From Fimicolochytrium jonesii (taxonomy: Eukaryota), in NCBI RefSeq assembly GCF_025526975.1, contig NW_026515700.1, positions 307,041 through 327,040 on the forward strand: a stretch of DNA of 20,000 bases, in the 5' to 3' direction. Numbering within the stretch: position 1 is the stretch's first letter; every line of letters starts with the position of its first letter. Position numbers and translations under genes: made by a program. The notes below the pieces were generated by a model that had not been told where the DNA came from, ran no database searches, and saw nothing but the letters and a program-made list of their open reading frames with translations. Shown piece by piece: positions 1 through 20,000 of the stretch.

Positions 1-1279
1 AACATCCAACTGATCTCTCCCAACGTTCTTCTTTGTCAACGTCGTCTTGAACCCCAACTGCCGAACCAACTCCAATATCTTGTCCCCGACCTTCTCCGCA
101 TCCTTCACGTCGTCATCGCTGCGAGTGTTGGTGCCGATAAACGGGAGGATTTCTGCGATTTTAGCGGCGGTGGCGGGTGAGGAGCGCGCTTTCAATTTGA
201 CGACGTGGCCGAGGGTCAGGCAGCTCGTGATGCCGTGCGGGATACCGTACGGGGATCCGAGCGCATACCCCAGCGTATGGGAGAGTCCGAGGCCGCCTTT
301 GATATTGGAGCCAAGGAAGCCGAGGGAGGCGTAGGCGGCGAGGAAGAGGCGGGTGATGGTATCTGGGTTCTGCGGGTCCTGTTTGTACTTGGGGAGAAAG
401 GTGAAGAGTTCTTTGATGGCGGAGAGGGCCAGGAGTTGGCATGGCATCCAGGTTGCTGTGGGGTGGTATTGCAGTTCGATGGCGTGGTCGAGGGCGCGGA
501 TGCCTGTGGAGATGAAGAGGTCCGGTGGGGTGTGCGCGCCGAAACGGGGGTCGTAGAAGACGTGGGTGGGTAAGGTTCCCGGCTGGGAAATGGCTTGTTT
601 GGTCCCGTCGGGTTGGGTGAATCCGGCGCCGAAGGTGCATTCGGCGGCGGAGAGGGTGGTGGGGATCGCGATGTGGCGGAGGTAGTGGCCGGTCTTTTCG
701 TAGACGCGGAAAGAGATGGCTTTGGCGGAGTCGATGGGTGAGCCGCCGCCAATGGAGATGATGGTATCGATTGGGTGGTCTCCTTGAGCCTGAATGCGAG
801 AACGAAAGGGTATGATGAGTGTTGAGTATGAGTGTGTGAAATTGGGCGATGCATCAAAACGACATCCTCCTCGCTGCGCTCGCGACAAGGATGTTGGGCA
901 TCGATGCTCAAGAACACGGGCTCGCTATCGCTCGCAGGTATTCGCTGCCGCTCCCTTGCGCCAAACAACGCTCACTCCTTTCGTTGCTAACCCTCACCTT
1001 CAAAACAACCTCTACCGCCTCATCCAGCTCCTTGACAGGCGCATGTTGTTTGATTTTACTGAAAGTCACGGCATGCCTCTCCTTCCCCAACAACTCCTCC
1101 ACCTCTTTGACTAAAGGCGTTTTTGTCGCCAGCGAGTTCCCCGTCACAATAAAAGCTCTAGAATCTTCCTTGGGCAGGGCGGCAAGAAGGTTATCTTTCA
1201 CGCTGTTTGGGCCGTAGGAGAGTTGTTGGAGGGTTGTTGGCTTGTAGGTGCCCTGCAGGGGTGAGCGAGAGGATTCCAT
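1..1279 (-). CDS. Iron-containing alcohol dehydrogenase family protein (Fe-ADH / maleylacetate reductase-like), 2 exons visible, 3' end outside window
   Basis: Exon 1 is 1279-998 (MESSRSPLQGTYKPTTLQQLSYGPNS...IKQHAPVKELDEAVEVVLK). The intron is 997-790 (GTGAGG...CATTCAG). Exon 2 runs 789-1, open to the window edge. It contains IISIGGGSPIDSAK (NAD-binding GGGS), AIPTTLSAAE, STGIRALDHAIE and GLSHTLGYALGSPYGIPHG (metal-ligand Asp/His pattern of the family). Confidence 0.92.
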
Positions 1280-1717
1280 CTTGTGCCTTGTTCTTGTTGT
1301 TGTGTTGTTATGTTGTTGTGAGGTGTGAGATATGAATGCGATTATTTGAGCGACAGGGCAGTGAGTACCGGGTCTATGTACTGTACTGTAGGTGCGGGTG
1401 CTATGTGAGGGCCATGCCACACTGCGTTCATAATGGCGGGGCGGGATGGGGCTCTCCGCCGGTCCCGCAGAACACCGGGAGACTCGCCCGTCTGGGGAAG
1501 TGTGACATCACGCGCGCGAAAGTCGTCGCGCAAGACGTCGCTGCGAACGTGGACTCCGACGACGCAGACGCCACGAGCACACAGGAGAAAAGGCAGAGAA
1601 GCATGGGTGGGCTCATTATGCGAGGAAATATGATGGACCGCCGCCGTAGTACATACATAGGACACAGTTGCGCAATCTATGTATATAGCTAGCTTTCGCA
1701 AGTCTTGGTCAGGTCCG

Positions 1718-3810
1718 CTATCGCCAAATATTGCGGAAGGGCCAGATCATATCTACATGGCTAGCTCCTCCACTCCCTCCTTTCGCAGTTAGGCGGTGAG
1801 AGTAAAGCTCGCGGCATGCGTCTGCTCCTCGAGCTACTGTTAGTGCTGGGAGATCCTCGTTGGCGAATATAGGATGGTCCAATGTGACATCACCCGGAAC
1901 ACCAATGCCATTAGCCAGCAACGTCCCCTTCTTGGACTTCTTTATCGTTTTCAAGATTTTTGCGCCATGTCCGGCGTTCGACTCCTGAAAGAAATCAGAC
2001 ATCTGATCTTGAGGATCTGAGGTTTTGATAAAGGCGGCGTTTTGCGTGCTGAACGCGAGCACGCCGGGTTCAGACGATGTTCTGAACAGCGCCGAGCCAG
2101 ACCAGAGACGCTATTCCCCGTCCCATCGGAGGGATCTGTCATGTGGATAGACAGGTCTGGGATCGCCAACTTCCAGAGCATATGGACTTGCGCCTGACGG
2201 GTGTCACGTACTGTACTGCTGGTGCTGGTGGACAGGAAAGAGGGATCGCTTCGTTGTACTGTACCTCTGTCAAGGTCGCGAAGTGGGGGAGAATGGACAT
2301 CAGTCGGCAATCCACCGGCGCTGCCTGTCCAAAGAGCGCAATTGCGACAGCTTCTCCGTCACGGCGGTTGTACCACGCTGTAGGAATTTGGCAATATGAG
2401 AATCGCCATCTGGCAAAGAGATTCCAGTGATCTGAATCGCTACGACGTGCGTTATCTTCAGCACCCGATGTCCATCTCCCTAGTAATAGATACATCATCG
2501 ACGGGGAACCCGCTAGCATCTTCCTCATCATATGGCGGCAAAGCAGTCCAAGCTGCGGCGCCGTCCTCCACGGAATCCGCTCTCCACCCTTCCGGAGTGG
2601 TGAAGACGAAAGTGTGGGGTACGCCGTCCCGAATCCAAAATGACCAGGAAAATATGTCTAGGAGCTGGTGGACGGTGGAGGTCAGCATGAGCTGCGCACG
2701 TCATACGCACGCTTGTTGGCAATGGCGTGCGGAGTCTCAAGCCACTGCGCGGCGCGGCGGTCCTTAAAGCAAGAGAAGGCATCTAGACGTTCGACACGAC
2801 GTCAGGGCGTGTTGAATGATGGAGATACCGGGACGCCAGGAGTTATGGATGCCCGATTGACCAAGTGGCAATACCACGGCATGGCCGCCTTCATCAGATC
2901 TTCCCCTCGATCCCTTAAGTAGCTTCAGTAGTGTCCATCGCTTCATCAGATCTTTCCCTTAATCACCTCGGTCATTATCCTTGGTCAATCGCCATCGCTC
3001 AGCATCAGTACCTTCCTTCGATCCGTCCCGATCGCGCAAGGGTCGGTCGATGTAGTCATCACAGGGGATGACGAGCATCTGCGATCTATCACAGGGTAGA
3101 ATGTGCTGCTTGTGCTACACTCAAGGGCTACTTGCTTCCCGTCGTCCATTTGCAGCAAATGATCTTGTTCGGATCAATTGTCGAAAGAGTCGTGCAGACG
3201 GGGCCGGTGGCGCGCGCTTTCGCCGAAGGCCTCCGATGTGCCTCCGAAGGCCTCTCTCATGGGGAAGGGCTCCTTCGAGTGGAAAATGGGTTCGGCTTGC
3301 GTGCCTCACGCACTCACGCCCGGCCGTACACTCCTCCTTCCTTCACGCCACCTTGTTCTGCTTCGGTTGTAGCGGACTTTGGAAGGTAGATGGTAAAGCT
3401 GAGGCATTGAACGCACCCCAAAGCCTGTCGGAATCCCGTGCGATTCCTGGTTAAAAAAACCGCCACAGATGCGTCCGTGACCGGGAAGACCGATGTTGCA
3501 ACAACCTCAAACCAGTGTCCGGGTTCCATGGCAGCCCGGAAGACAAAAGCAATTGTCTGCTTGCTTTGATTCAGTAATCCGATTCTGACCACGGTGCAGA
3601 TGACGGTGGGTGGAATATGGCAGCGAGAAGGCTTGCTCACACCCGTGGTGGCTATGCTCGGAATAATGTCTGGGGCGTCGTAACCAGATTTGTGGCCAGT
3701 ATATACTGTTTGGCGTAGTGGCGAATCTTCCTGGTCTGCAGACGTGCAGGTCACCGGTTCGATTCCCACGTCCTTCAGCTCAGAGTATGACCGCGACAGT
3801 TGTATGTTAC
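1718..3810 (-). other. Possible degenerate coding remnant(s) of unknown family
   Basis: Several protein-like minus-strand ORF pieces (1718-2062, 1951-2310, 2458-2688, 3314-3892) in different frames. I see no recognisable motif and could not splice them into a coherent model. Confidence 0.2.
2889..3024. repeat. Three imperfect direct repeats (core CATCAGATCTTYCCYTNRATC), ~52-60 bp apart
   Basis: cttcatcagatcttcccctcgatcc (2889-2913), ccatcgcttcatcagatctttcccttaatc (2935-2964), gccatcgctcagcatcagtaccttccttcgatcc (2991-3024). Confidence 0.55.
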
Positions 3811-3961
3811 CTGAATGCACTTTCTTTTTGCTTCTGTAACACTCCCTTTGTAAACACTCGCGCTTAACCGAGCCTCTCCGCTCTTCATTCAACGTGCGGT
3901 GTGGGGAAGCGGGTCGATGCTAGTGAGAAGTGTGGTTTCGCTCCGAAAAAAGACCAAGAGG

Positions 3962-3967
3962 AAAAAA
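3962..3967 (-). terminator. RNA polymerase III T-run terminator of the tRNA gene
   Basis: TTTTTT on the minus strand, 4 nt downstream of the tRNA 3' end. Confidence 0.75.
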
Positions 3968-3971
3968 GAGA

Positions 3972-4043
3972 AGGTCTCGCCGAGAATCGAACTCGGGTCG
4001 TGAGATTCAGAGTCTCAAGTGCTAACCGCTACACCACGAAACC
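3972..4043 (-). tRNA. tRNA-Gln (anticodon CTG), intronless
   Basis: The reverse complement reads GGTTTCGTGGTGTAGCGGTTAGCACTTGAGACTCTGAATCTCACGACCCGAGTTCGATTCTCGGCGAGACCT (72 nt). Acceptor stem GGTTTCG/CGAGACC, anticodon arm TGAGA-CT-CTG-AA-TCTCA, T arm CCGAG-TTCGATT-CTCGG. Confidence 0.96.
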
Positions 4044-4302
4044 GCAGATGTTTTGCGATGATGTTTAAACTACAGATTCGTAAATACGCGGGAGTCGCAA
4101 TTCATTTCCCGAAGTTGATGATACGCGGTGTCAAAACTGGTCGGAGAGCTTTGGGCCTCTCGCCCAACAACCATTTTATTTTCACCTTATATTGGCCATA
4201 ACTTTATAGATGGGAATTACAGAACAAGCAGATTTTATGCCCAAAAATCGTACATACTGCCACATTGTTCTTCACCGGCGCTCCCATCACCACTGCAAAA
4301 AC

Positions 4303-5385
4303 TTACAGCACATGCAAAACATTATCCGGCACATGAAAACTCTCCAAAATCTCTGCAACCGCTGTGTTGAACCCCGGTGGTCCACACACCACAATGCACA
4401 AACTATCCCACGGGTATTCATTCACCCAGTTGCACCTGCCCAGATTCCCCCCTTCCAGATCCGCTGTTCCGTCGACGGACGGCAGCTTCCTGTCGAGCAA
4501 TGTCTTCAAATCTTCCGGTAATATCTCTTTGATATGCTGCCGGGTGACGCGGCCTTTTGATCCAGTCCATGAAGCAGATGGACTGGAGAGGATGTGAGAT
4601 ACGCGTAAGGACCCTTGCTCGGCGCGTTCCATGCATGCGAGCTCGGTGATTAGGAACATCTCTTCCTCGGAGCGGTTCGACCATAGGAGCCGGAGATGCG
4701 ATCTGAGGAGACCTTTGCGGGCGCTTGTTGGTGTGGATGCTCGTACTCGCTGCTCGGGTTGACTGTTGCGTTGGCCAAATTGGCGATAGAAATCTAGGAT
4801 TTGGAGCATGGGTGTGATTCCTGCTCAGATCATGATTGATTAGTTCGACGTTCAATGATGTTCAATTGCGAGTGGAGCAAAACACATACCTGTCCCAGCT
4901 GCAATCATAACGACGTTAGGGTAACAGCCGTCCTCAGAATCCGGATGGATCAGAGGCGTAACGATATGACTTTCCGGATTTGTCATGTCCACAAGGTCGC
5001 CGACGGCGACCTCGTCCAAAGGAGCTGTGACAAGCCCGGCGGGGTATATCTGGAGAACGACTATGTGAGTACATTTTGAGTGCCCACGCTCATACATGAG
5101 AGGCACGCACCTTAATGTATAGATCGATGCAATCATCATTCGGGCTCTTAATTGGCGTATACTCTCTGATGTGGATTGTGCCCGACTTGTCTCTCAATCT
5201 GATATCAAGGCAACGATCAGACCATGCACTGGTTTCTGGGACAGACGAGAACGCACCGCAAAGTCACTGCATCCCCAGGCTCAATATCCACCGGAATCGT
5301 CTGCTTCAACCGAAACCGAAACTTTCGCACCGGCATGGGTGCATTGAAAGCCGTCACCGTCGTCTTCTCAACAAGCGTCGCTCCA
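4303..5385 (-). other. Cytochrome b5 reductase-like FAD- and NAD(P)H-binding domains of the fusion protein
   Basis: REYTPI (RxY[T/S]), YIKIYPAGLVT, MIAAGTGITPMLQ, LLWSNRSEEE, WTGSKGRV, VVCGPPGF. Confidence 0.93.
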
Positions 5386-8300
5386 GCGCCTCTCGACGCG
5401 GAAGTATTCAGAGATGTATGTGAAGTTTCCGACGTCGTTGACGGTGGAGAGAGAATGAACTTCCGCGGACCCGTGTCGGATGGTGGTAATAACGGCTGAG
5501 ATAATGCGGCCGAAGCTATGATTTTGGGTCCCAGTCCTGATTTCGTGGGTTTGTAAGGCCCCTTCTTGGCCTCGAATGATGTAGAAGCTTCTTGAATGGC
5601 GGCCGGGACAATGCTGCTTCGACGACGGGCTAGTGCAGGAGGAGCCGCGCTCACGCTTAGGATCGACCGTCCCATCTCGGTCACCTTTTCCTTAGGGAGG
5701 CACGCAATGACCAGGCTGCTGAGTTTATTCATGGCCTTGATGGAGAGTTGATTAGTCCGTGAGCTTCATGTAAATGCACATGTCAGAGCAACCAAATCTA
5801 ACTTACAAACCGGCTATGCATGTGAATACCGCCGTTTTTCACTTTGCCCAGGAATGCGTTTGTGGCGTCCATGCCAACATAATCTTCCAGTAACCGACGG
5901 CCACCGGGATGCTGATCAAAATAGCCGTTCAAATCCATGACCAGTCTAGTGTGAAGTCAGAGGTTCGATCTCCATCTCAAAGAACACAAAGCCACCGTCT
6001 ACATACCCTCCGATCAAAATCCAAGGCTTTCCGTCCATGCACGATTGCTCAAAATCCTCCAGTGTTATCTCGCGTGCGGGTTCTTTGATCTGCACATCCT
6101 CGGTGAACTGCACAACGCCGACATTCTCCTCTGTGTTTCGCTCGACCCATTTGCCGAGACGGCTTTGCAAGAACCGGTCAAGGAAGCGGTTTGCGAAATC
6201 GCCGAGGTAGGCCTGGATTGATTTGATGCCCAGCAGGATGACGACGAGCAGACCGAAGTAGCCTAGGTAGAGGGAGGGCCAGATCTTGCTGGTGGAGCCG
6301 TAGCTTGCGGCTGGGTGGTTTGAATCGTATCAGTACGGATGAAGTATCAAAGAGCACTGTGCTTCTTGGAGAAATCTTACCCAAGTCCTGCACGCCGTAC
6401 CAGCCATTTAGGATGCCTACGAACTCGTTTAGTCATTTGAAGCCCGGTTATCGCTATAAGCGCCGCTTTACACGTACCCAGTACATAGGTCAAGTAAGAC
6501 CCGAGTTTGTGAACCGACCGCATTCCTTGGGAGTATCTCGCAAAGATCCGCCAGTCTTTCTGCGCAAGAAATCCTACCGTCCCGCCCGCGATTCCGACGC
6601 AGGCGGTAGCCACGCCGATTTTGATATGATCGTACGTGTGCATCTTCAACTGGATAACAAGTATCACTTTAATTCTCCGTTAAAGCTGCTGCCGTCGAGC
6701 CCAACTCCAAACCTTACAATAAACTCGTCATACGAGACGGCAATGTGTCGCAACGTAAACGCAAACTCTCCCAGCGCAAAGCTCATGAAGAACTTGTGCC
6801 AGCCCAACCACAGATCAGCACGTTTTCCATAACGGGCAATATAGATCCCCACAGGTATCATCACGAAGAGAATCAGGAGCATGTCGCCTGCGTGCCATCT
6901 GGTTTCGGGAACGAGCAGTATTGGTGTACGAAAGGGTAAATGAACCCTTATCGCATAGAACACTTACATCCGGAAAAAGACGTCGAAATCGTGGGAGTCC
7001 GTGATCGCAACCGACGACGAGCCACTACTCCCCGACCCAACCCGAATATTCAATTTTACCTGAAACCGGTTACCGGCCCCATGATATGCCAACTTCTTGT
7101 CGGATGACGAATACGCAAAGATCACCGGAAGCGTTGCACTCGTGCTGCTGATCTCCTTGTCGCAGGCGTCGCCGGTGCTGAGTTTGCGGGTGAATGCGAA
7201 GGCGCGGGTGGAGGACCAGTCTGCTGTCACATCTTTCATGTTTGTGATGTCGTTTGTGCAGCCTTGGCTGACATCCGTTGGTGGCTATGAGTCGATGAGA
7301 AGATGGAGTAAGGGTATGCGGGGTGACCCACAGCATTATATGACCCTTTACCTGTGTATACGATGTGGAGTACAAATCGTGAACACTCCAGGTTCCATCG
7401 TCGTCCTCATAAACCGCATACATGTCTGCGTTCGTCATGGTATCACCGATCCCGAATGCAAACCTACCGCCCGCGTTCGTCAAAGATCGGTCCTTTTCTC
7501 ACCCAAAGTACATGGAAGCCCTTCAGTTTCTTACCACCCGCTGTAATTCGAGGCAATAACAAAATCCACCGTTTTCGCAGTGACATCGATGTAGTATTGC
7601 AAGATCAGCCCTGTCGTCAATTGAACGGTTTGTTTCGCGGAGCCCTGGGTCGTGCCAGTTGATGTGCTGCTCGTGGTCACTCCGCGAAGAGCATCAATTG
7701 TGGTTGCGTCCGCCCAGCTGTGGCGCAATAGAAGAACCTGTTTCAGTAGGTGATCCAACGGACGCGGAGAACGTGCCAGCTCCACCGCAGCCCTAGTGAC
7801 GCACCTAAACGCGCTTTCTGGAAAGGCGGCGATATCCGTATTCCACAGGATTATGTTTGACAAGGTCACATTGTTTAAATCCTTGGTGTCTTGGGCGTTG
7901 AGCACATCGGGGAGTTGATACCAGAACGCATCACCGTCTAGGATGCATAACAGCGTGAGTTTCTCTCCAGTATATCCTACATTCAAATATCACATCCTCC
8001 TCCTCCACCGCTCACCCCGTAACCTCATAAACTGAGTCATGATCGACGCCTTGAACAACGGCCCCACTAGCCCAGATTCAGCATCCTCGGCTAATCCGCC
8101 CACATACGGCTCTATGTTGTCGATATTCCCTTCATACGCATCATAGAGAGCTTTCTGTAGAACCTCGTCGGCGGTGATGTCGGCGAATGCATAAACTTTC
8201 GTGAGGCCGAAACTCTTCCTGCATTCGTTATAGCTGGGGAGACCGATATCTCTGTGGGCAATTGGTTTTTCCAGGATTAAGCCTCAGTCTGCCAGGGCAT

Positions 8301-10014
8301 CGCCTGATTCGCAAAGCACTGACCGGCCCCTCTGGATGTTGAAAGCCGCCAGATCGAAGAAAAGCTGCGGCTTCAGCCCGAATGGAGCTGCCGGCATGAA
8401 TTGACGGAGGTCATCGACAAGAACTACGTCTGCGGCTTGTTCCAGCTTTTGAGGTTTGGCAATTCAATGATGAGCGTGACTTCCTTTGCACCGCACACAA
8501 CATTCTCCGAAACCCAACTCACCTGTGCCACCAAGCCTCGAAGAATCGGCTCGATACCATCAGTCACGACGGCGGCAGGGTTCGTGATCGCGTCGCGGAG
8601 AATTAGATGCCCCTTTGGGAATGGCGCCCATTTCTCGTCAAGACGTGGTATGATGGGGCTGATTGCGCTGTGGCCGTAGCGGAAGGATGCTCCCCAGAAA
8701 AGCATGTCAATAGCTGTGAGAGTAAACGGTCGATGAGCAGAGAGTAAAGCGCATAGGAGGTGGACCGGTAACTCACCGGGATCTATCGATGCGTTGTAAC
8801 CCTTATATGCTGGAAGTGGCTGGCCCAGCAATCGAGGAAGATACTAAGGACATTGCATCAGTTGAAACTCTCGAATCGCAATATGACGGACGTAATTATA
8901 GGTAGCCACCTCGGAGTACGTGACTTTTTGAATGCAAGCGACGACCCACGTTCTGGCCATCTGAAAGAGAGCCTCATCTGTGGCATTTGGATATAGTTTC
9001 AGATACTGAGCAGCACGACGGTTGTGCTCTCGCATGAATAACGTTTGGATTGAGAGCAGCGCTGGATTCTTGACAAAGGAAAACGTCGGTAAGTGGATGC
9101 TAAGCTGGTGAAGGCCGATTATACACGTAATGATAGATCACCTCATTCGCACGGACATCCCTACGCAAAGCAATTCGTCAATATGAGATCACAATTACTC
9201 ATACTCGTTGCCAACTCTCACCCAGCCAGGAAGGTTCGGGGTTTCAATCCCAACATGATATCCGGCGTACTTTCTGGCCGAAAAGGTAGAAGATTTCCCT
9301 TGTACGTTCTGAACAGCCCGTTGGAGAACGTCCGTAGCATCGCAGCACGCTCGTCATCTGCACCGTAAACCTGTGACCCGTCCACCCATGCCGATTGCTT
9401 GTTGTGGAACACACGCTCGTGCGTCGTCGGATCGGGGGTGTAGTTGATGCGGGTGAACTTCATAGTTGCTGTTCCCGTGCTCCCTGGGTCGTAGACTGGA
9501 TCGCCAGATGGTACGCCGATGTTGAAGGACTCGGAGGCATTATTTTCAACATGGATGATGTCCTATAATCGCTGACACATTAGCCCCCAGCATCCGACAA
9601 CACATCCCATTCTCAATCCTTACTGACATGAGCCATAAATTGTCCCCAGAAAGCCAGCATATTCGACACCTTCTCCACGTTCGGCACATCGTCCCCTGCA
9701 CTTCCCATCACTGTATTCGACACATGTCGTGCACTTGGGTAGGTGGAGTTCCCCGTCCCTATCGGCGCGCCAATGCCGTCGACATAACGTGATCCCCGAA
9801 CTTCGATCCGGCCAAATGGCGTCCCGTACGAGCCCCAAGCGGGATTAGCCGCATTGTTCTGCATGGCACATGTATATACGGGTGAGTTTCAAAATCTCAT
9901 TAATCCCTCCGGCGCAACGATTTTTATTACCCCACTTCCGTCGAAATGCCGGTAGGCAGCGCGTGTAGCGCCAAAAAGTTGCTCAAAGAGCAGGTAGCAT
10001 AACCACGGCTTCAT
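4303..10014 (-). CDS. Multidomain membrane oxidoreductase: signal peptide + animal-type heme peroxidase + DOMON + cytochrome b561 + cytochrome b5 + FAD/NAD(P)H reductase (1423 aa, 22 exons)
   Basis: Exons on the minus strand: 10014-9931, 9858-9628, 9562-9222, 9160-9142, 9068-8910, 8843-8777, 8713-8523, 8445-8324, 8251-8016, 7937-7805, 7717-7535, 7463-7352, 7284-6968, 6898-6718, 6649-6478, 6416-6381, 6310-6007, 5945-5807, 5735-5257, 5198-5111, 5049-4890, 4820-4303. All 21 introns are GT..AG with consistent phases. The total is 4272 nt including TAA. Domain motifs are listed in the sub-features. Confidence 0.88.
5705..6085 (-). other. Cytochrome b5 heme-binding domain of the fusion protein
   Basis: ITLEDF...PWILIGGLVMDLNGYFDQHPGGRRLLEDYVGMDATNAF...HMHSRFAMNKLSSLVIA, with canonical HPGG, G.DAT..F and HS motifs. 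Confidence 0.92.
6190..6898 (-). other. Cytochrome b561-type transmembrane di-heme domain of the fusion protein
   Basis: Four spaced His in hydrophobic helices: WHAGDMLLILFVMIPVGIYIARY, WLGWHKFFM, DHIKIGV, MRSVHKLGSYLTYVLG. These are followed by a further hydrophobic helix, WPSLYLGYFGLLVVILLGI. Boundaries are approximate. Confidence 0.85.
7040..7630 (-). other. DOMON domain (heme-binding Met/His type) of the fusion protein
   Basis: GWFAFGIGDTMTNADM (ligand Met), VHDLYS...PPTD, FAFTRKLSTGDACD, VIFAYS, LAYHG (ligand His). Boundaries are approximate. Confidence 0.9.
7805..9957 (-). other. Peroxidase-cyclooxygenase superfamily (animal heme peroxidase) domain of the fusion protein
   Basis: YRHFDGSG-NN..NPAWG, PSARHVSN, WGQFMAHD (distal Gln/His), SAWVDGSQVYG (Ca loop), GDVRANE (distal Arg/Glu), LFMREHNR, FRYGHS (proximal His), DLAAFNIQRGRDIGLPSYN, YVGGLAE, QFMRLRDGDAFWY. 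Confidence 0.95.
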
Positions 10015-10659
10015 GTCGAGCGGTGTATACGGGCTCCAGAGCGGCCAAAAATTCCGATTTTGATCCCTTTTGCAGAGTTGCCGCGTCCATAGCAGAGTTG
10101 TGATAATATCGTGCAGAGAGGTTAAGGCACTGGTAGATTGCATCCCGTTACCGAGAAGGGCCCAGAACCAGCTTTTCCGGACGACATAACAAATAGTTGC
10201 TGCCCGCATCTCCGGTCCGTCATTCAAGGACCATAGGTTAACTCTATTGTATCATTTCCACCGGCCACTAAAGCCATGGTGACATAGCATATGCGGCATT
10301 GAGATCGAGAGAGATTCGGAAATGCCCTGATTCTATCTCTCGGAAGGTATTCCGCTAGTCCCAATACCTTGCACTCACAGTCAAAATGGGGAAAGATACG
10401 CGTGACGTCAGCAGTCAAGGGGTGCATTCTCCCCTGTTCTCGCCCCATTTCGACATTATACTTTCTAAACGTTTGCGCTATTTGCGTTCAGCACCAAGAC
10501 GACCACATGCGCCCCACTTTACTGAACGGTTTTGAAGTGCATATAAGGTCTCGCCCAAAAGATTTTTCCCCTCCTATAAATGAACCCAGTAGTAGACCTC
10601 GCATTTAGACGTATTTCGAGGCGCTATTTCAAACCAATTGGCAGAGGTCAGCCATAGCA
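10015..10659. promoter_or_regulatory. Divergent intergenic region with TATA-like elements on the + strand
   Basis: Lies between head-to-head starts of the fusion gene and the GH28-like gene. TATAAG is near 10542 and CTATAAAT near 10574, ~85-120 nt upstream of the ATG at 10660. Confidence 0.4.
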
Positions 10660-13095
10660 ATGCCTATCCGTGAGGTGGCTGGGCCCATTGGCCTGCATTG
10701 TGGCGCTTATGGCGATTGGTGGTGATGTTGCGCTGGCCGCAACTACGTACGACCTTGAAGATCACCGCAACTGCGAAGGTCACATCGACTACAAAAGTTA
10801 CCACTCCGATCGCATCGACAGCGAAGGTAACATCGACGCCGAAGCCGTCACCTATCCTTACTTCGACGCTAAAGCCATCTGACTCCCAGTACATCAACAC
10901 CAAAGCCGACCACCCCTCCCGTTACATCAACACCAAAGCCGCCACCCCTCCTGTGACATCAGCGCCCAAACCATCTACTCCGCCCGTGACAGCTACGCCA
11001 AAGTCGTCCAACCACCCCGTGACATCTATGCTAAAGCCGTCAACTCCCACCATTGATCGTCGACGCCACGATCTGTCAGGAGCAGTGTCACATCGTCAAG
11101 CAGGCCGCTTTCTTCTGTGCCTTCCGCAACTCCCATTGTGTCATCAGGCAGGCCGATCTCGTCGACGCCTGTCGCCACTCAAGTCGCGCCCGCTTCGTCG
11201 TCCTATTCGCCTCCTCCGGTATCCTCACACTCGACGCCTGCCGCATCATCCCTTAGGCCTAATTCACCAGCTTATTCGGCTTTTCCTTCGTCTTCACCAG
11301 CATACTCCCCACCTGCCGCTTCTTCTGCCGGGTCGACTGTTTCCTCATACTTGCCCCCTCCGGCATCTGGTTCTCCGTGGTACCCGGGTGTGAGCACCTT
11401 CATCGCATCAGACGCACATAGACCCAGCAGCTCCTTTGCAGCTTACAGTCCCCCGCCCTCAGCTGGTGATGCCTCATTTTCACCGCTACAAACGGCCTCA
11501 TTTTCACCGCTACAGGGCGGCGATGCTCCTTCATCTAGCTGGGACTCCGCGTTTGCATCCCCGAGTTGCCGAGTTACCGGAGTGACCCGTGTACAGCTGG
11601 GTGTCACCATCGCCCAGCGCATGGGATGCTGCTTCGCCTTCCACCGATTTTGGAGCTCATAGTTCTTTCCCATCGGATTGGCCATCTGGATCGCCGCAAC
11701 CTTCCGCCTCCCAAAGCCATGGTCGTCTGCATCGCCGTGGGCATCTGCGCCGCCCTCATCATCTCTCTTATCGGTCTCTGCACCGTCCTCAGCCATCTAT
11801 CCTCCTCCTTCCCTACCCTCAACCCCGATTGCTTCCTCGCCGATCTTTTCACAGCCGAACTATTCTCAATCCTCTCCGGCCGTCATAAGCCTCTCTCCGT
11901 CCGCACCAGCACCAGCACCAACACCCACTACCTCGCAGGAGCGTCACCTGCGCTTCCAGGATGTCAGCTACAGAAATATTTGCGGCTCTTCAATGCTGCC
12001 AAATTTCATATCACGGTCATTGGCAATCACAACGAGCTGTGGAACATCCGGGTCGAGGCCGCATTTCTGTGCCGTCATTTCTTGGTTTGATTATCCATTC
12101 TTGGCGGGGCATTGCAGAACTGAAATCTTGCGACGTAACAGAAACGGACGGCTTTGTCATCCGAGTCCAACTACGTGCACGACGTCTATGTCCGCAACGG
12201 CGACGAATGCTTCACGGTCAAAACGCCCACCAACAACTTCCGCGGCGAAAACATCTTTTGCAACAATACGGCTGGCAACAATATCGGGTCGTTTGGAAAT
12301 GGCCCCGTGCCTGTGAGGGTTTCCAATGTGTATTATCGGAATGTCACGCTGGTAAGAACATTGTGACACTTTATGATCATTTTTTTGAACTTCTGCCTTG
12401 CACTTGTTTCCATCCAGATTGGTCCAGCCTCCGCCGGGATCATGCACAAGGCGTACATCATCAACAATGGATATGTGACGAACGTCACTTACGAGGACTT
12501 CCGGATGGAGTCCGCTGCGTGAGTCCTAGGTAGCTAACCGGCTCCCCGGATTTTAGGTACCCGATTTCCATCAACCCATTCTGGTGTGGCAAAGGCGATT
12601 GCGGAAACACCTATGGAAAGTAAGTGTGATTTCCGATTGACCTCTGGCTTCGAGTGCGGCTGCAAACGCGGGTCGTCATAAACCTTGGCATGTGGAAAAG
12701 ATTTAGTCTGGGGAAGCTCTACAGTGCGGTCGGAGTGAGGGCTTCAGATAACGGTGGACCTAGAGGCATGGAATCTGATGTGAACGACCGTATCCGCGTG
12801 CGATGGGGCCAGAACGGCGGCCATTTGTCTGGCCGACGTCCTCCCATGCTAACGTTCACCCATCCCTCCCAGCCTTACATTCAGCAACATAACATACCGC
12901 AATTTCAAAATTTACGGCAAAAACGACAAACCCAGAGCGCTCGTCCAAATGAAGTGCATCAGCTCAACGCAATCCCCCATCGGCAAAATTCAGTGCTCCA
13001 ACATCAAGCTCTGTAACGTCGACAGGAGTCAGGCGGTTGGGTATGGCGCGGACGACGTTACCAATGTTAGTGGTCATACTACGAATTGCAAGTAG
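10660..13095 (+). pseudogene. GH28 rhamnogalacturonase-like pectinase with signal peptide and long Ser/Thr/Pro-rich stalk; frameshifted, N-terminal part of the catalytic domain apparently missing
   Basis: A signal-like segment (RWLGPLACIVALMAIGGDVALAATT) is out of frame with ATG 10660. The S/T/P-rich frame switches near 10748, 11055, ~11570-11590 and ~11715. GH28 pieces: HLRFQD, LFNAAKFHITVIGNHNELWNIRVEA, ETDGF, SNYVHDVYVRNGDECFTVKTPTNNFRGENIFC..AGNNIGSFG..VSNVYYRNVTL. Clean 3' exons follow: 12418-12518 (GIMHKAY..GYVTNVTYEDF), 12557-12619 (YPISINPFWC) and 12873-13095 (LTFSNITYRNF...CSNIKL...TAG). NGDEC with no GHG motif points to the rhamnogalacturonase type rather than polygalacturonase. Confidence 0.8.
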
Positions 13096-14412
13096 GTTTG
13101 TAGATGCGGCGGACGATGCGGGCAGTCTGACTTCGAGTTGCACTATTCGAGGCAAACTCCTTAACCACTCGGACACAGTGTCGTGAATCAAACCTGAAAG
13201 ATTGTGTGCCGTTGGGAAACGCACGCCTCCTGAAGCGTGGAAAGAATGCTTGATATTTGTTGCAGCAGCTGTGAAAAGTAATCCGACCTCTGAAGAAGGA
13301 GAGAGTTCCTCGACCGCACGGCTTAGGATCGCGGCGAGAAGGCGTACCATACCGGTGCACTTCATGCCCAATGGCAGCACAAAGGCAGGAGAACGGCAGG
13401 AGAGCGCCTGAAGAATGTGCACATTCCCAAACCCGGCATGATAAGAGTCGGTACACTTCCCGTTGTGTCCTTGTCAATTGTTCCAAAGAGAAGAAACCTA
13501 TCTCCCAATCCATGTCCGCCATTGTTCGAAAAACCTCACCGCCTCAATCACGGTTTGGCCGATTGTTGGAAGAAAAAAAAAAAAGAAGTGAACCAATGCA
13601 TTCATTGGTTTCGATTGTACCCAAAAAAAAAACTGGTCCATTCCGTCCGTCCTTGTCCGAATTTTTCAAATAAGTCCTTTTCCAATTGTTTGAAAGACAA
13701 AAAATTGGTTCAATCGTGGTTCTTCCTTTGTTCCCGTTTCTCCTGTGCTTCGGATCCGTTTTGAAGGAGCTAGAGCGGAGAAAGGCGTGTCGTGCTTATG
13801 TCAGCTCCGACGGTATTCGACGGTTCACAATCGTTGAACGAAAGAATAACCAGATGTATGACACAAACGTAGAAAGCTAGGGTTAGGAGTCAGAAGGAAC
13901 GGCAGTCAAATGAAGTTGCCCAGGGGTAGGGGAGGACAAACGGGTATCGCAGATAACAGGCATAACAGGAACGCAGCTAGGAGGGAGGAAGACCGAGGGA
14001 GGAGGAAATAAGGTACAATCAAAACCACGTCCATATCTCAAGGTCCACCAGAGAAAAAGGTTTCGTGCAGCTGTTCTCGATGCTGGTGTGACAGGGGTGT
14101 GACAGGGGTTCGCCACAGCATCCTGTGGTAACCAAGCCTCCTTTGACTTCCTCCGCCATCTTTTGTCTAGGTGAGGGTACCACGATGCAGGCCGCGGGGC
14201 GTGGTATACGCAGTTGGGATATCTTCGGGCGAGTAGAATGGGGGAGTTCGCCCTCTTTCCGAAAATCAATGAGCGGGCGGTATCGCATTCACGCCGATGC
14301 TTTTCAGGCGTCGTAGCTGCAGATGAAAGCACAGATTAAGCCTGACCTGTCTAAATGACCCGACGCAAAGAACTGTGAAAATATCCAGAGCCAGTTTTGC
14401 ACAAGGAACAAC

Positions 14413-16506
14413 TCACCGATTCTCCCTCCGAAACAACAGCGAAGCAGCCGCCCCAACCTCCCCAAACTCGAAACCAAACCCATCTTCTTCTCTCCTTACG
14501 GGCCCGTTCGCATTACCACAATCTGCCGCCGATTTCCGTACTGTCGATCGCTCAGCGGTATCCACCTCTATCCGCACATCCTCCCTCGCGTGGTACGACC
14601 CGACCGCCCTTTCCCTCGCCTCTGCCAGTGCCGCTATGGCTCTGAGCCGGTATGCATTCACATCCATAGGCATACCAGGACTCCTCCTCCTCCGTCTTCT
14701 TTCACTGTCACTACGGCCCAACACGCCATCCCCGTCGCGGTACTTCCTCGTGCTGTTCCGCGCGTACGTATTCCCCGTGCCTTTATCGTGGTCAGTGAAG
14801 CGGGATGGGCGTGGAGATAGGGATCGGGTTCGGTCTCGTTCTGGATTGGGGAGGGTGGAGGAGGGGCGGGATCGTGTGGCGTGTGGGGGGATGGTGGTGA
14901 GGGTGGTGTCGCGGTGATGGGAAATGGGCCGTGGACGAGTAAGGGTGGTGTCGCGGTTGGAGTGTGCTGCAGCTGTCGTTGGTGTTGTGATTGGATTGGG
15001 AGAACGTTGAGCGCCGCTTCTATCCATACGGGTGCTGTCATGACGCGACGGCGCTGATGAGAGGCTCCGGTCCGCATTGGCCATCAGCGTTTCGTCTATC
15101 CCCACCCGGCCGTCTTGCATGGTGGAGGGTGGGGTCGATACACCGGATCCGGTGTCCGCAGCAGCAAAATAAGCCTGCATAGCAGAAACCGCCTCCTCAT
15201 CATAAGCCGGCGGGACGTGCGGATGTGGTGTTGATTGAGTGCGCGTGCTGTCCCGGTAGAACTGATCGCGCTCTCGCGCACGGTCAATGAGAGCCGCTGC
15301 TGTCGGGCGGGTCGACTTTGACTGTTTTGGTTTCGGTTGTGGTAATCCGGGCTCGGTTTTGATCTTCACGGCGTCCTCTACCTGCACTGTCGGTTGCTCG
15401 ACCATTTCGTTCTTGATGTCAGGCACCGCAGCAACGCTGTTCTCGGGTTTGATAACCTTATCTTCAGGGATTGTGACAAGAGGTACTTCACTAGCTGCGC
15501 AACTGACGACACCCGGGACGCCCGGCGGGTCAGGCGTGCGACGCCACATTAGGAGTGGGTCGAAAATGATCTCGGGTTGTGGGCCCCAGCCTTGGACAGT
15601 CTTTTCTTTCGCAATCCCATTCCCCGTTCTCTCATCCCATCGCAGCTTGTACTCGTCAAACCGACTTACATCCGGTTCTGGTAGAAAATCCTGGCCGTCA
15701 AAACCGCCTACACGTAGTCGAGAGTGGGTGTCGCTGCTGTTGCTGCCAAGACCGGCCATGCTGTTTCCCATTCCGCTGTTGTGAGTAGCCAGTCCGATGT
15801 TTGCGGCAGCGGTGTTGAGGTTGTTCGGCCGATCGTGCCAAGTAGACCCCCGCATCTGCATGGGCTTGCCCATTCCCGGGCCGTATGCGCTACCGCGCAT
15901 AGCTGCTGCATTCGCACGAGCATTGTTGCCGAGTGAGTAGTCTCGTCCGCCGGGTATCATGCCGCCCATCATCCTCATACCATTCATCCCGTATCCAACA
16001 CCGACGCCGCCCATTCCGACCTTCACGCCGTCATACGTCCCGAGTACACCCGCAGGTGGATACGCCATCATATTCATTCCCATATCCATTTCCATGCCCA
16101 TGCCCATGCTCATCCCAATCGTCGCATTCGGGTATCCTCCACCATGGTATCCCATCCCCATCTGATATGCTGCTTGTCCGCCCGCCATGCCCATATGCGG
16201 GCCTGCTGCTCCCCAACCTCCCGGATCCAGTCCCACGGGGCTGTATTGATTCATAAAGTCTGGCTCGTCGTATGGATTGGGCATCATTCCTCCTCCTCCT
16301 CCGTAGCCGTATAGGTCCGGAAATACAGGCCCGCCGCCCCCGCCTCCTCCGCGCCCGTTGCGGAACCCAATAGAGTCATCGTAGAATCGGTTCTGATAGA
16401 CAGACACCAGGAAGGAAGAGCAGTTAGAAGAGGTATCAGGGTACGGACCTGTAGGTCTGTATATGGGATCGATCGCTAGAGCCTTGGAGCAGCACGTACG
16501 TACCAT
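14413..16506 (-). CDS. Hypothetical low-complexity, probably disordered protein (~660 aa spliced; Gly/Met/Tyr/Asn-rich N-terminus, Arg/Ser/Thr-rich C-terminus)
   Basis: 697-codon open frame. There is a likely in-frame 111-nt intron at 16503-16393 straight after the ATG (ATG|GTACGT...CTAAC...TATCAG|AAC), giving MNRFYDDSIGFRNGRGGGGGGG... No recognisable folded domain. Confidence 0.65.
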   Translation of the reverse strand: MVRTCCSKALAIDPIYRPTGPYPDTSSNCSSFLVSVYQNRFYDDSIGFRNGRGGGGGGGPVFPDLYGYGGGGGMMPNPYDEPDFMNQYSPVGLDPGGWGAAGPHMGMAGGQAAYQMGMGYHGGGYPNATIGMSMGMGMEMDMGMNMMAYPPAGVLGTYDGVKVGMGGVGVGYGMNGMRMMGGMIPGGRDYSLGNNARANAAAMRGSAYGPGMGKPMQMRGSTWHDRPNNLNTAAANIGLATHNSGMGNSMAGLGSNSSDTHSRLRVGGFDGQDFLPEPDVSRFDEYKLRWDERTGNGIAKEKTVQGWGPQPEIIFDPLLMWRRTPDPPGVPGVVSCAASEVPLVTIPEDKVIKPENSVAAVPDIKNEMVEQPTVQVEDAVKIKTEPGLPQPKPKQSKSTRPTAAALIDRARERDQFYRDSTRTQSTPHPHVPPAYDEEAVSAMQAYFAAADTGSGVSTPPSTMQDGRVGIDETLMANADRSLSSAPSRHDSTRMDRSGAQRSPNPITTPTTAAAHSNRDTTLTRPRPISHHRDTTLTTIPPHATRSRPSSTLPNPERDRTRSLSPRPSRFTDHDKGTGNTYARNSTRKYRDGDGVLGRSDSERRRRRRSPGMPMDVNAYRLRAIAALAEARERAVGSYHAREDVRIEVDTAERSTVRKSAADCGNANGPVRREEDGFGFEFGEVGAAASLLFRRENR

Positions 16507-16875
16507 TCTGGATGGAGTAAACAGCAGCTGTGCTTTTTTTGGCTGACCCTCGTTTGCACATCAAACTGCTCAGAGCGGATATTTGAGCGACCAGACAGCT
16601 CTGACTCTATGGGTATATATGAGTGATGCAGATAAGTTGGTGGTTGCGCGTGTGTCTACAGGGAGGATTGGCAGGACAGGACAGCAGGACTCAGGACAAC
16701 CCTGCACAGCCACCCGGACTCTGAGGACTATCACCATTGCAGACATCATTGTCACGGATTTCAACACCAGACACATACAGCATCGCGGTTGGCAACAGCA
16801 CGGTTCCCCAGTGGCTGGACTTCGGCTCCCTGCTCTCCTTTTCGCTTTTGAGTTACTCTGGACTTGGGAATCAGC

Positions 16876-17381
16876 ATGCCAAGGTATGGTACCTGATTCT
16901 CGCCACACCCAGACACGCCGTCTTCGGCGTGGCCTCTCACAGTGGCCTTGTACGGCGCGCACAAGAGCTGAAGATGTCTTCAACAATTGGAGCTGACTCT
17001 ATCTTTCTCTCTATATCTTCACCACAAACTGGTGTGGTGCCTAGGCACAAGAAGGGTCGCGCTCGGGTGAACTTTCCTGGTTGTGATAAGAGATATGGGC
17101 AACGTTACGACCCTGGATGCATTGGATGTGGGGACGTTGGGTCTACGGGATTTTGGAGGGTTGGGAGGGAGATTTATCTTCGCTTGTTGGACTATGGGTA
17201 TTGGCCCATGATGGGGCAGGGTGCATATGAACCATATGCGTGCGAGGGATGCATGCGGAGGTGGCGGAAGCTGGGCTGGACTGTAAGCGGCGTGGCTGTT
17301 GACGAGGAGGAGGGGAATGATGTCGTTGTTATGGTGAATGGTGAAGGAGAGAACCCATCCTTTGAAGTGATTGAGGATCCC
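16876..17381 (+). pseudogene. Truncated ORF with a GATA-like C4 zinc finger, interrupted by the subtelomeric unit
   Basis: Possible start ATG 16876 with intron 16884-16942 (GTATGG...CTCACAG) in frame. It encodes CIGC..STGFWR...YACEGCMRRWRKLG and an acidic stretch. The frame then runs directly into AGGGTTAGGGTTA at 17382. Confidence 0.4.
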
Positions 17382-17730
17382 AGGGTTAGGGTTACAGGAC
17401 TGTTCCGGGTTATGGGTTATTTTTGGTGGTCCGGAAAGTGTCAAATAAAGTTGCTAGCAATGTTCAAGGGTGTCTTACGGTACTGTACATAGAAATTTGG
17501 GGCATGTTTTCCACTCAATGCTCCCGGAAAATCTGTTTTTCCGCTTTTTGACTATGAAAATGTCACCAAAACGCATTTTCTGAAACTCTGAGTGGATGGA
17601 TTTTGCTTAAAGTTCAATATGTCTCAGAAAACATCCCCAGAAACATCTAGGAACCTTCATCTACTCTAGTATTTATCAACTCCTGGCACTTTTTGTTTCC
17701 AGGCAATATGGGGGTGTTCTGCAGTTGGTG
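17382..17730 (+). repeat. Diverged, 3'-truncated internal copy of the subtelomeric unit, preceded by only two telomere repeats
   Basis: AGGGTTAGGGTTA at 17382-17394, then 17395-17730 colinear with 18394-18729 (roughly 90% identical by eye). Homology stops after CAGTTGGTG. Confidence 0.93.
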
Positions 17731-17773
17731 TTATGGACGACGCGCCCATACCATAAGCTTACCTACTGACAGC

Positions 17774-17855
17774 CGCCAATGTCAACCGCCAAATGTCAAA
17801 CGCCAATGTCAATGTCAATGTCAGTGTCAATGTCAGTGTCAATGTCAATGTCAAT
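17774..17855. repeat. Hexamer microsatellite (CARTGT)n, ~8-9 units, preceded by CGCCAA(A)TGTCAA repeats
   Basis: cgccaatgtcaaccgccaaatgtcaaacgccaatgtcaatgtcaatgtcagtgtcaatgtcagtgtcaatgtcaatgtcaatg. Confidence 0.9.
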
Positions 17856-17982
17856 GCCACTCCCTCTCTCCTCTCATTTCGCCAATCCTCTTGCAATATC
17901 GCCACTCCTCCTCTCTCCTCTCATTTCGCCAATCCTCTTGCAATATCGCCACTCCTCCTCTCTCCTCTCATTTCGCCAATCC
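17856..17982. repeat. 47-bp pyrimidine-rich minisatellite, ~2.7 copies
   Basis: Unit gccactcctcctctctcctctcatttcgccaatcctcttgcaatatc, starting at 17856 (45-bp variant), 17901 and 17948 (partial). Confidence 0.92.
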
Positions 17983-18183
17983 CCCCTCGGCTTCTCCACA
18001 CCCCCCACTGCTTCCCCATAGCCAGCAGCTGTAGCAATGCTCTCTACGCTCGCCACGCACGCTCTAGGAGCATAGCTGGCGCCCCCCAGTCCCCTCTTGT
18101 TGTTGTTGTTCTCTGATCTGCTGGGTTGCCTATCTATAAATAGCCGGCCTCTTTTCGTCCATTCCCTTCCTCCCCAGCAGATC

Positions 18184-18845
18184 AGGGTTAGGGTTAGGGG
18201 TTAGGGTTAGGGTTAGGGTTAGGGTTAGGGTTAGGGTTAGGGTTAGGGTTAGGGTTAGGGTTAGGGGTTAGGGTTAGGGTTAGGGTTAGGGTTAGGGTTA
18301 GGGTTAGGGTTAGGGTTAGGGTTAGGGTTAGGGTTAGGGGTTAGGGTTAGGGGTTAGGGTTAGGGTTAGGGGTTAGGGTTAGGGTTAGGGTTACAGGACT
18401 GTTCCCGGTTATGGGTTATTTTTGGCCATCCAAAAAGTGTCATATAAAGTTGCTAGCAATGTTCAGGGGCATCTTACTGTAATGTGCTTCAAGTTTTGGG
18501 GCATGTTTTCCACTCAATGCCCCGGGAAAATCTGTTTTTCCGATTTTTGACTATGAAAATATTGCCAAAATGCATTTTCTGAAACTCTGAGTGGATGGAT
18601 TTCGCTTAAAGTGGAATATGTCTCAGAAAACATCCCCAAAAACATCTAGGAACCTTCATCTACTCTAGTATTCATCAACTCCTGGCACTTTTTGTTTCCA
18701 GGCAATATGGGGGTGTTCTCCAGTTGGTGGCGAATGACTCATTTTGGTTTGCTCTCAATTTGCTACATGTTCAAGGGTTAGGGTTAGGGTTAGGGTTTTA
18801 GGGTTAGGGTTAGGGTTAGGGTTAGGGTTAGGGTTAGGGTTAGGG

Positions 18846-18886
<41 letters not shown>

Positions 18887-20000
18887 GGTTAGGGTTAGGG
18901 TTAGGGTTAGGGTTAGGGTTAGGGTTAGGGTTAGGGTTAGGGTTAGGGTTAGGGTTAGGGTTAGGGTTACAGGACTGTTCCCGGTTATGGGTTATTTTTG
19001 GCCATCCAAAAAGTGTCATATAAAGTTGCTAGCAATGTTCAGGGGCATCTTACTGTAATGTGCTTCAAGTTTTGGGGCATGTTTTCCACTCAATGCCCCG
19101 GGAAAATCTGTTTTTCCGATTTTTGACTATGAAAATATTGCCAAAATGCATTTTCTGAAACTCTGAGTGGATGGATTTCGCTTAAAGTGGAATATGTCTC
19201 AGAAAACATCCCCAAAAACATCTAGGAACCTTCATCTACTCTAGTATTCATCAACTCCTGGCACTTTTTGTTTCCAGGCAATATGGGGGTGTTCTCCAGT
19301 TGGTGGCGAATGACTCATTTTGGTTTGCTCTCAATTTGCTACATGTTCAAGGGTTAGGGTTAGGGTTAGGGTTTTAGGGTTAGGGTTAGGGTTAGGGTTA
19401 GGGTTAGGGTTAGGGTTAGGGTTAGGGTTAGGGTTAGGGTTAGGGTTAGGGTTAGGGTTAGGGTTAGGGTTAGGGTTAGGGTTAGGGTTAGGGTTAGGGT
19501 TAGGGTTAGGGTTAGGGTTAGGGTTAGGGTTAGGGTTACAGGACTGTTCCCGGTTATGGGTTATTTTTGGCCATCCAAAAAGTGTCATATAAAGTTGCTA
19601 GCAATGTTCAGGGGCATCTTACTGTAATGTGCTTCAAGTTTTGGGGCATGTTTTCCACTCAATGCCCCGGGAAAATCTGTTTTTCCGATTTTTGACTATG
19701 AAAATATTGCCAAAATGCATTTTCTGAAACTCTGAGTGGATGGATTTCGCTTAAAGTGGAATATGTCTCAGAAAACATCCCCAAAAACATCTAGGAACCT
19801 TCATCTACTCTAGTATTCATCAACTCCTGCACTTTTTGTTTCCAGGCAATATGGGGGTGTTCTCCAGTTGGTGGCGAATGACTCATTTTGGTTTGCTCTC
19901 AATTTGCTACATGTTCAAGGTTAGTTAGGGTTAGGGTTAGGGTTAGGTTAGGGTTAGGGTTAGGGTTAGGTTAGGGTTAGGGTTAGGGTTAGGGTTAGGG
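18184..20000 (+). repeat. Composite telomeric array: (TTAGGG)n tracts alternating with a ~380-bp spacer
   Basis: Tracts: 18184-18393, 18774-18969, 19350-19538, 19918-20000 (open at the window edge). Spacers: 18394-18773 (380 bp), 18970-19349 (380 bp), 19539-19917 (379 bp). The G-rich strand is on +, consistent with the chromosome end lying to the right. Confidence 0.97.

Follow-up and report, generated by a model that had tools for sequence, protein, structure and literature searches.

The window (the whole stretch of 20,000 nucleotides that was analysed) belongs to the chytrid Fimicolochytrium jonesii and carries ordinary genes to within ~1 kb of a diverged spacer copy, termed the relic, that lies inward of an array of telomere repeats and spacers (Table 1). 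Among the 20 ORF pieces of the window, six had Pfam matches and none was a transposon ORF. A multi-domain gene, with exons for haem peroxidase, DOMON, and NAD binding, occupies about 4300–10000 of the minus strand. Its peroxidase exon (9221–9562, minus strand) has 71% identity to a Powellomyces hirtus protein; the model of this gene may be split, as the Powellomyces relative is one protein of 1421 aa compared to a record of 654 aa here. The long low-complexity ORF that follows had its best atlas match (0.87) amongst unnamed eukaryote clusters. Closest to the array, an open frame on the plus strand (16974–17381) with two CxxC-like motifs runs into the relic junction and may be what is left of a gene severed when the chromosome broke long ago. 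A homologue search with this frame was negative (best atlas match, 0.83), and its codon score was −0.06 overall and +0.06 in the 3′ half, compared to 0.13–0.20 in three of four control exons.

Table 1. Features of the window, numbered from its first nucleotide
Feature	Position	Strand	Description
tRNA-Gln(CTG) gene	3972–4043	−	
715-codon low-complexity ORF	14413–16560	−	No Pfam family
Two-repeat telomere vestige	17382–17393	+	Short interstitial telomeric sequence, abuts the inner copy
Relic spacer copy	17394–17730	+	337 bp aligned, 90.8% identical, 31 substitutions, no indels
Unique stretch joining relic to tract 1	17731–18184	+	454 bp; short tandem repeats
Tract 1	18185–18393	+	34 repeats, 209 bp; five GGGGTTA variants
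Spacer 1	18393–18774	+	382 bp including boundary A at both ends; 40% GC, non-coding
Tract 2	18775–18969	+	32 repeats, 195 bp; GGGTTTTA is repeat 4, GGGTTTA is repeat 15
Spacer 2	18969–19350	+	382 bp; no difference from spacer 1
Tract 3	19351–19538	+	31 repeats, 188 bp; GGGTTTTA is repeat 4
Spacer 3	19538–19918	+	381 bp; one G fewer; 381/381 aligned bases identical
Tract 4	19919–20000	+	82 bp as far as the window edge, which cuts the tract

The array fills the window from 18185 to its edge at 20000. A first-pass annotation had described the three spacers as alike apart from one G, with periods of 576 and 569 bp, and this was confirmed: spacers 1 and 2 are the same, spacer 3 is short of a single G, and the spacers start at 18393, 18969, and 19538. 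The repeat variant it had pointed out as common to tracts 2 and 3 was located at 18793 and 19369, the fourth repeat both times, and the single NheI (18452, 19028, and 19597) and SmaI (18521, 19097, and 19666) sites it had read in each spacer are present. Two degenerate telomere repeats occur inside the spacer near its inner end (spacer positions 14 and 21). All matches to GGGTTAGGGTT allowing at most one mismatch (102 of 102, compared to 0.34 in shuffles) were on the plus strand, the first of them at 17383. Because the G-rich strand faces outward, the array likely represents a true chromosome end, a position read from the orientation of the repeats. Tract 4 is without the GGGTTTTA variant, and four of its 14 complete repeats are short of one or two G. 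The missing G are likely consensus noise from low coverage at the contig end; the final 200 bases contain deletion errors, which weakens the consensus in this part, and polishing may have homogenised the copies. The missing variant is likely a trace of trimming followed by re-extension.

Two full units, each a spacer with the tract that follows it, are available for comparison. Unit 1 (576 bp) and unit 2 (569 bp) become the same sequence once one 7-nt repeat is removed, in line with the earlier proposal that spacer and tract had been copied together, and since the match includes the tract, the whole tract moved along with the spacer. This joint copying would have taken place in the cell, and less likely in the assembler. 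Tracts 2 and 3 are nearly pure (three variant repeats of 63) and tract 1 is of a different composition, with GGGGTTA in 5 of 34 repeats compared to 0 of 63 (Fisher p = 0.004); none of its variants 4, 7, and 9 repeats ahead of the spacer is seen again in tract 2 or 3. Tract 1 is thus not the template, given its different make, and is likely the native telomere of this end, predating the array.

A fourth spacer copy, overlooked in the first-pass annotation, is the relic itself. Its inner junction is exactly that of the array spacers, while the outer 45 bp are absent, and it retains the NheI site without the SmaI site. As this diverged copy shares the telomere junction, the spacer belongs to a repeat family that has resided at chromosome ends before, though the relic is not a direct donor of the array, being 9% diverged and having lost the outer 45 bp. 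No 11-mer of the vestige type was found on either strand of 1–17381. The substitutions of the relic are clustered (12 neighbours within 2 nt compared to 5.3 expected, p ~0.001), with 18 of the 31 falling within the first 110 bp. Six differences in the first 41 bp form alternative hairpins in the relic and the outer copies (17403–17436 compared to 18419–18436), and these hairpins resemble the expected product of quasi-palindrome template switching.

The unique stretch between the relic and tract 1 holds further features. Five CCAAT motifs, every one on the plus strand, occur in 17770–18184 (window background, 0.85 per kb), and a TATAAA at 18135, with a pyrimidine run behind it, points into the telomere; judged by these motifs, 17770–18184 is a candidate promoter, either for a TERRA-like RNA or captured from a gene. 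In addition, a perfect 13-bp inverted repeat (18113–18125 and 18173–18185), with a second arm that ends right where tract 1 begins, may be a scar left by fold-back during end repair or may have arisen by chance (window-wide E = 0.31).

Several identities were considered for the spacer. A coding origin, prompted by 31 relic substitutions without indels, was rejected, as stop codons interrupt all six frames and the substitutions have no bias by codon position (11/10/10). Scans of the spacer revealed no ORF for a reverse transcriptase or REL endonuclease, so on ORF content the element is not of the MoTeR type, and no hammerhead core, pol III box B, or A-tail. A structured RNA gene or a fragment of telomerase RNA was likewise set aside: no Rfam match was better than E = 0.91, and the spacer folds no more stably than shuffled sequence as RNA (z = −1.24 for the plus strand, −0.23 for the minus strand, and −0.33 for the relic) or as DNA (z = −1.53), a comparison of low power with two sequence variants. 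Amongst metagenome contigs, a spacer 21-mer had no matches and an 18-mer of the junction had nine, none of which extended into the spacer (11–17 of the next 60 bases agree); spacer patterns gave 0 and 0 matches in two scans of viral contigs and 0 in prokaryote genomes. The absence of relatives in these scans says little, because the collections contain few chytrid telomeres.

Natural arrays of this build are already published (PMC9066243, and the accessible part of PMC8381367), and wild fungi and worms both provide examples of the architecture. The wild Pyricularia isolate US71 has a tandem 4-kb unit with internal tracts of 6–34 repeats, those of 22–34 repeats being of native length, an array that has been linked to spontaneous telomere failure (accessible text of PMC8381367). 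As in the Pyricularia oryzae foxtail strains described there, the F. jonesii array consists of tandem units in a wild fungus set between TTAGGG tracts of up to native length, and, as in MoTeR arrays, a truncated relic with a short telomere vestige lies deeper inside (parts available of PMC8381367 and 10.1101/845669). The Pyricularia units, by contrast, are described as 1.7–5 kb and mostly carrying or needing a reverse transcriptase, whereas the unit here has a 382-bp, ORF-free spacer and occurs in a chytrid. In Naumovozyma castellii TelKO strains, ~275-bp units are amplified after telomerase knockout (PMC6778800, as excerpted). These share with F. jonesii a short non-coding element directly inside the telomere repeats (220 or 445 bp in the yeast) and uniform units of element plus tract (accessible parts of PMC6778800, PMC12408736, and PMC13535437). 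They also share a short vestige at the inner border, which in F. jonesii measures 12 bp and belongs to the relic only, the array copies following long tracts. In the yeast as described, however, arrays follow telomerase knockout and have ~50-bp tracts, with the wild type having a single element per end. Further, the TelKO and Y′ variants portrayed in the available text of PMC12408736 differ at the inner end, whereas the copies here differ at the outer end.

Amongst wild Caenorhabditis elegans, CB4856 and DL226 carry TALT1 at one end in arrays of five and six copies (PMC9066243; PMC4805358 in part). In contrast to the array here, those five or six copies extend over 13–16 kb, have short repeat tracts, and have a known internal donor (PMC9066243; PMC4805358 in part). 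The relic, the only other copy in the window, is 9% diverged and shorter. Y′ elements of Saccharomyces cerevisiae are several kb in length and encode a helicase. The natural Y′ arrays of this yeast are, like the array here, tandem subtelomeric elements in wild strains with normal-length caps, but they are heterogeneous where the F. jonesii array is homogeneous (accessible part of PMC13345159). A literature search, with subscription journals mostly outside its coverage, found no such array in chytrids, nor a chytrid TERT or telomerase RNA.

By analogy, the array appears to work like a TelKO or TALT array. On balance, a short non-coding, telomere-adjacent element and a full-length tract were probably amplified together by homology-driven DNA copying and then captured by this end. 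Under such a scheme the element would long have been resident at the chromosome ends of F. jonesii, and an old copy would have become internalised after an end broke and joined other DNA, leaving the relic. On some end, a telomere of ~31 repeats would then have invaded either a short vestige upstream of the element or the element itself, with the site of invasion setting the register, and element and tract would have been copied repeatedly through a D-loop, or excised as a ~570-bp circle and rolled. This end would have gained the array through strand invasion by tract 1, its own telomere, within the final few repeats ahead of an element, and the last tract would subsequently have been trimmed and re-extended, probably by telomerase. 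There are precedents for parts of this sequence of events, as equal lengths of interstitial tracts in Pyricularia have been read as a sign of D-loop copying and as speaking against sequential transposition (10.1101/845669, accessible text), and copying in TelKO strains is described as beginning at a 9-bp repeat vestige upstream of the 220-bp element (PMC6778800, accessible text). D-loop iteration, a rolling circle, and in-register unequal exchange give an equal product, and the data single out none of them. The ~570-bp t-circles suggested as a possibility in the first-pass annotation are therefore one of several routes. A circle would be expected to produce identical units, repeat variants included; one 7-nt repeat separates units 1 and 2, and tract 4 is without the shared variant that a single uninterrupted rolling pass would be expected to leave there.

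Other explanations concern the origin of the array or of the spacer. It is unlikely that assembly expanded one or two real copies to three where the contig end is thin, or that two haplotypes were stitched together. Such an origin would account for spacer copies that are 100% identical and for deletion errors that increase in spacer 3 and tract 4, and the 7-nt gap between units 1 and 2 could be consensus noise; going from one spacer to three, however, requires joins via tracts of just ~200 bp. Long-read assemblers usually reject joins as short as this. The same joins should bring the GGGGTTA variants of tract 1 into tracts 2 and 3, where they occur in 0 of 63 repeats, and the relic, at 91% identity, marks the element as a genuine family of repeats joined to telomere sequence. 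Decidedly unlikely is an array built by target-primed reverse transcription of a tiny non-autonomous, or heavily 5′-truncated, MoTeR/FoTeR or Penelope-like element and capped by telomerase. The one diverged copy (1/1) does combine a fixed inner junction on TAACCC repeats (minus strand) with a variable outer end, the same inner-fixed polarity as MoTeR relics (PMC8381367; 10.1101/845669) and truncated FoTeRs (PMC12857005) in the accessible parts of those reports. The copies, at 337–382 bp, are within the 336–409 bp range given for FoTeR 3′ UTRs (PMC12857005, accessible text), and the two degenerate telomere repeats are close to the spacer inner end. Independent insertions, on the other hand, should vary in truncation point and tract length, and here the outer ends are identical in 3 of 3 spacers and tracts 2 and 3 differ by just one repeat; the spacer also contained no ORF, hammerhead core, pol III box B, or A-tail, and there was no run of variant repeats at its outer end. 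The identical outer ends and tract lengths argue against an array assembled by transposition. As for the element, it may itself derive from a retroelement, because the polarity of the relic matches MoTeR and FoTeR remnants, and a descent from the 3′ end of a telomeric retrotransposon, with the array still made by DNA copying, is possible, if on the doubtful side. It is extremely improbable that the spacer is a cDNA, later duplicated, which telomerase made by running beyond the template into more 5′ sequence of its own RNA or of a parasitic RNA. On the minus strand a 5-bp hairpin stands immediately 5′ of UAACCCUAACCC, the expected place of a template boundary element, but one of its base pairs is disrupted in the relic, the minus-strand fold is no better than shuffles (z = −0.23), and Rfam was without a match. 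To our knowledge, there is no precedent for a telomerase read-through of 380 nt.

The remaining explanations accept amplification by recombination and assign it a larger part in telomere maintenance. The first-pass annotation had likened the array to TALT and type I survivors; the likeness stands for the architecture, though the loss of telomerase that it would imply is not indicated, because the internal tracts are long and mostly pure. A fungus without telomerase activity, absent or lost, with all ends kept by type I-like amplification of this unit, is very improbable. The array is homogeneous, its architecture resembles TelKO and TALT survivor ends (accessible parts of PMC6778800 and PMC4805358), and fungi naturally without telomerase exist (PMC13234504, accessible text). 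Yet the internal tracts are nearly pure and measure 188–209 bp compared to the ~50 bp given for TelKO survivors (PMC6778800, accessible text), and, since its tracts are not short, the array was not classed among type I ALT products. Additionally, the naturally telomerase-free yeasts covered in the available text of PMC13234504 have dropped TTAGGG entirely, long caps have served as an argument that natural Y′ amplifications are not of type I (PMC13345159, accessible part), and another chytrid has canonical TTAGGG ends (PMC6284735). Improbable, too, is a standing wild pathway in this early-diverging fungus, in which ends would be routinely extended by ~570-bp units rolled from t-circles, beside or instead of telomerase, with canonical TTAGGG kept and an element that may have been domesticated from the 3′ end of a telomeric retrotransposon. 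For an element amplified with its tract by homology-driven copying and captured by this end, the role is most likely none, or an occasional rescue of the end, and not the main route of telomere maintenance.

The points that set this array apart are the small unit, the full-length tracts, and the chytrid lineage. As F. jonesii is a culturable fungus, a 570-bp ladder or circle could be easily assayed for. A single end from a single assembly adds modestly to a pattern already known, but, if the array is real, amplification of ends of the TelKO/TALT type would extend to the chytrids, with one of the smallest natural units, and would help to show how frequently telomere recombination is used by wild cells that are probably telomerase-positive.
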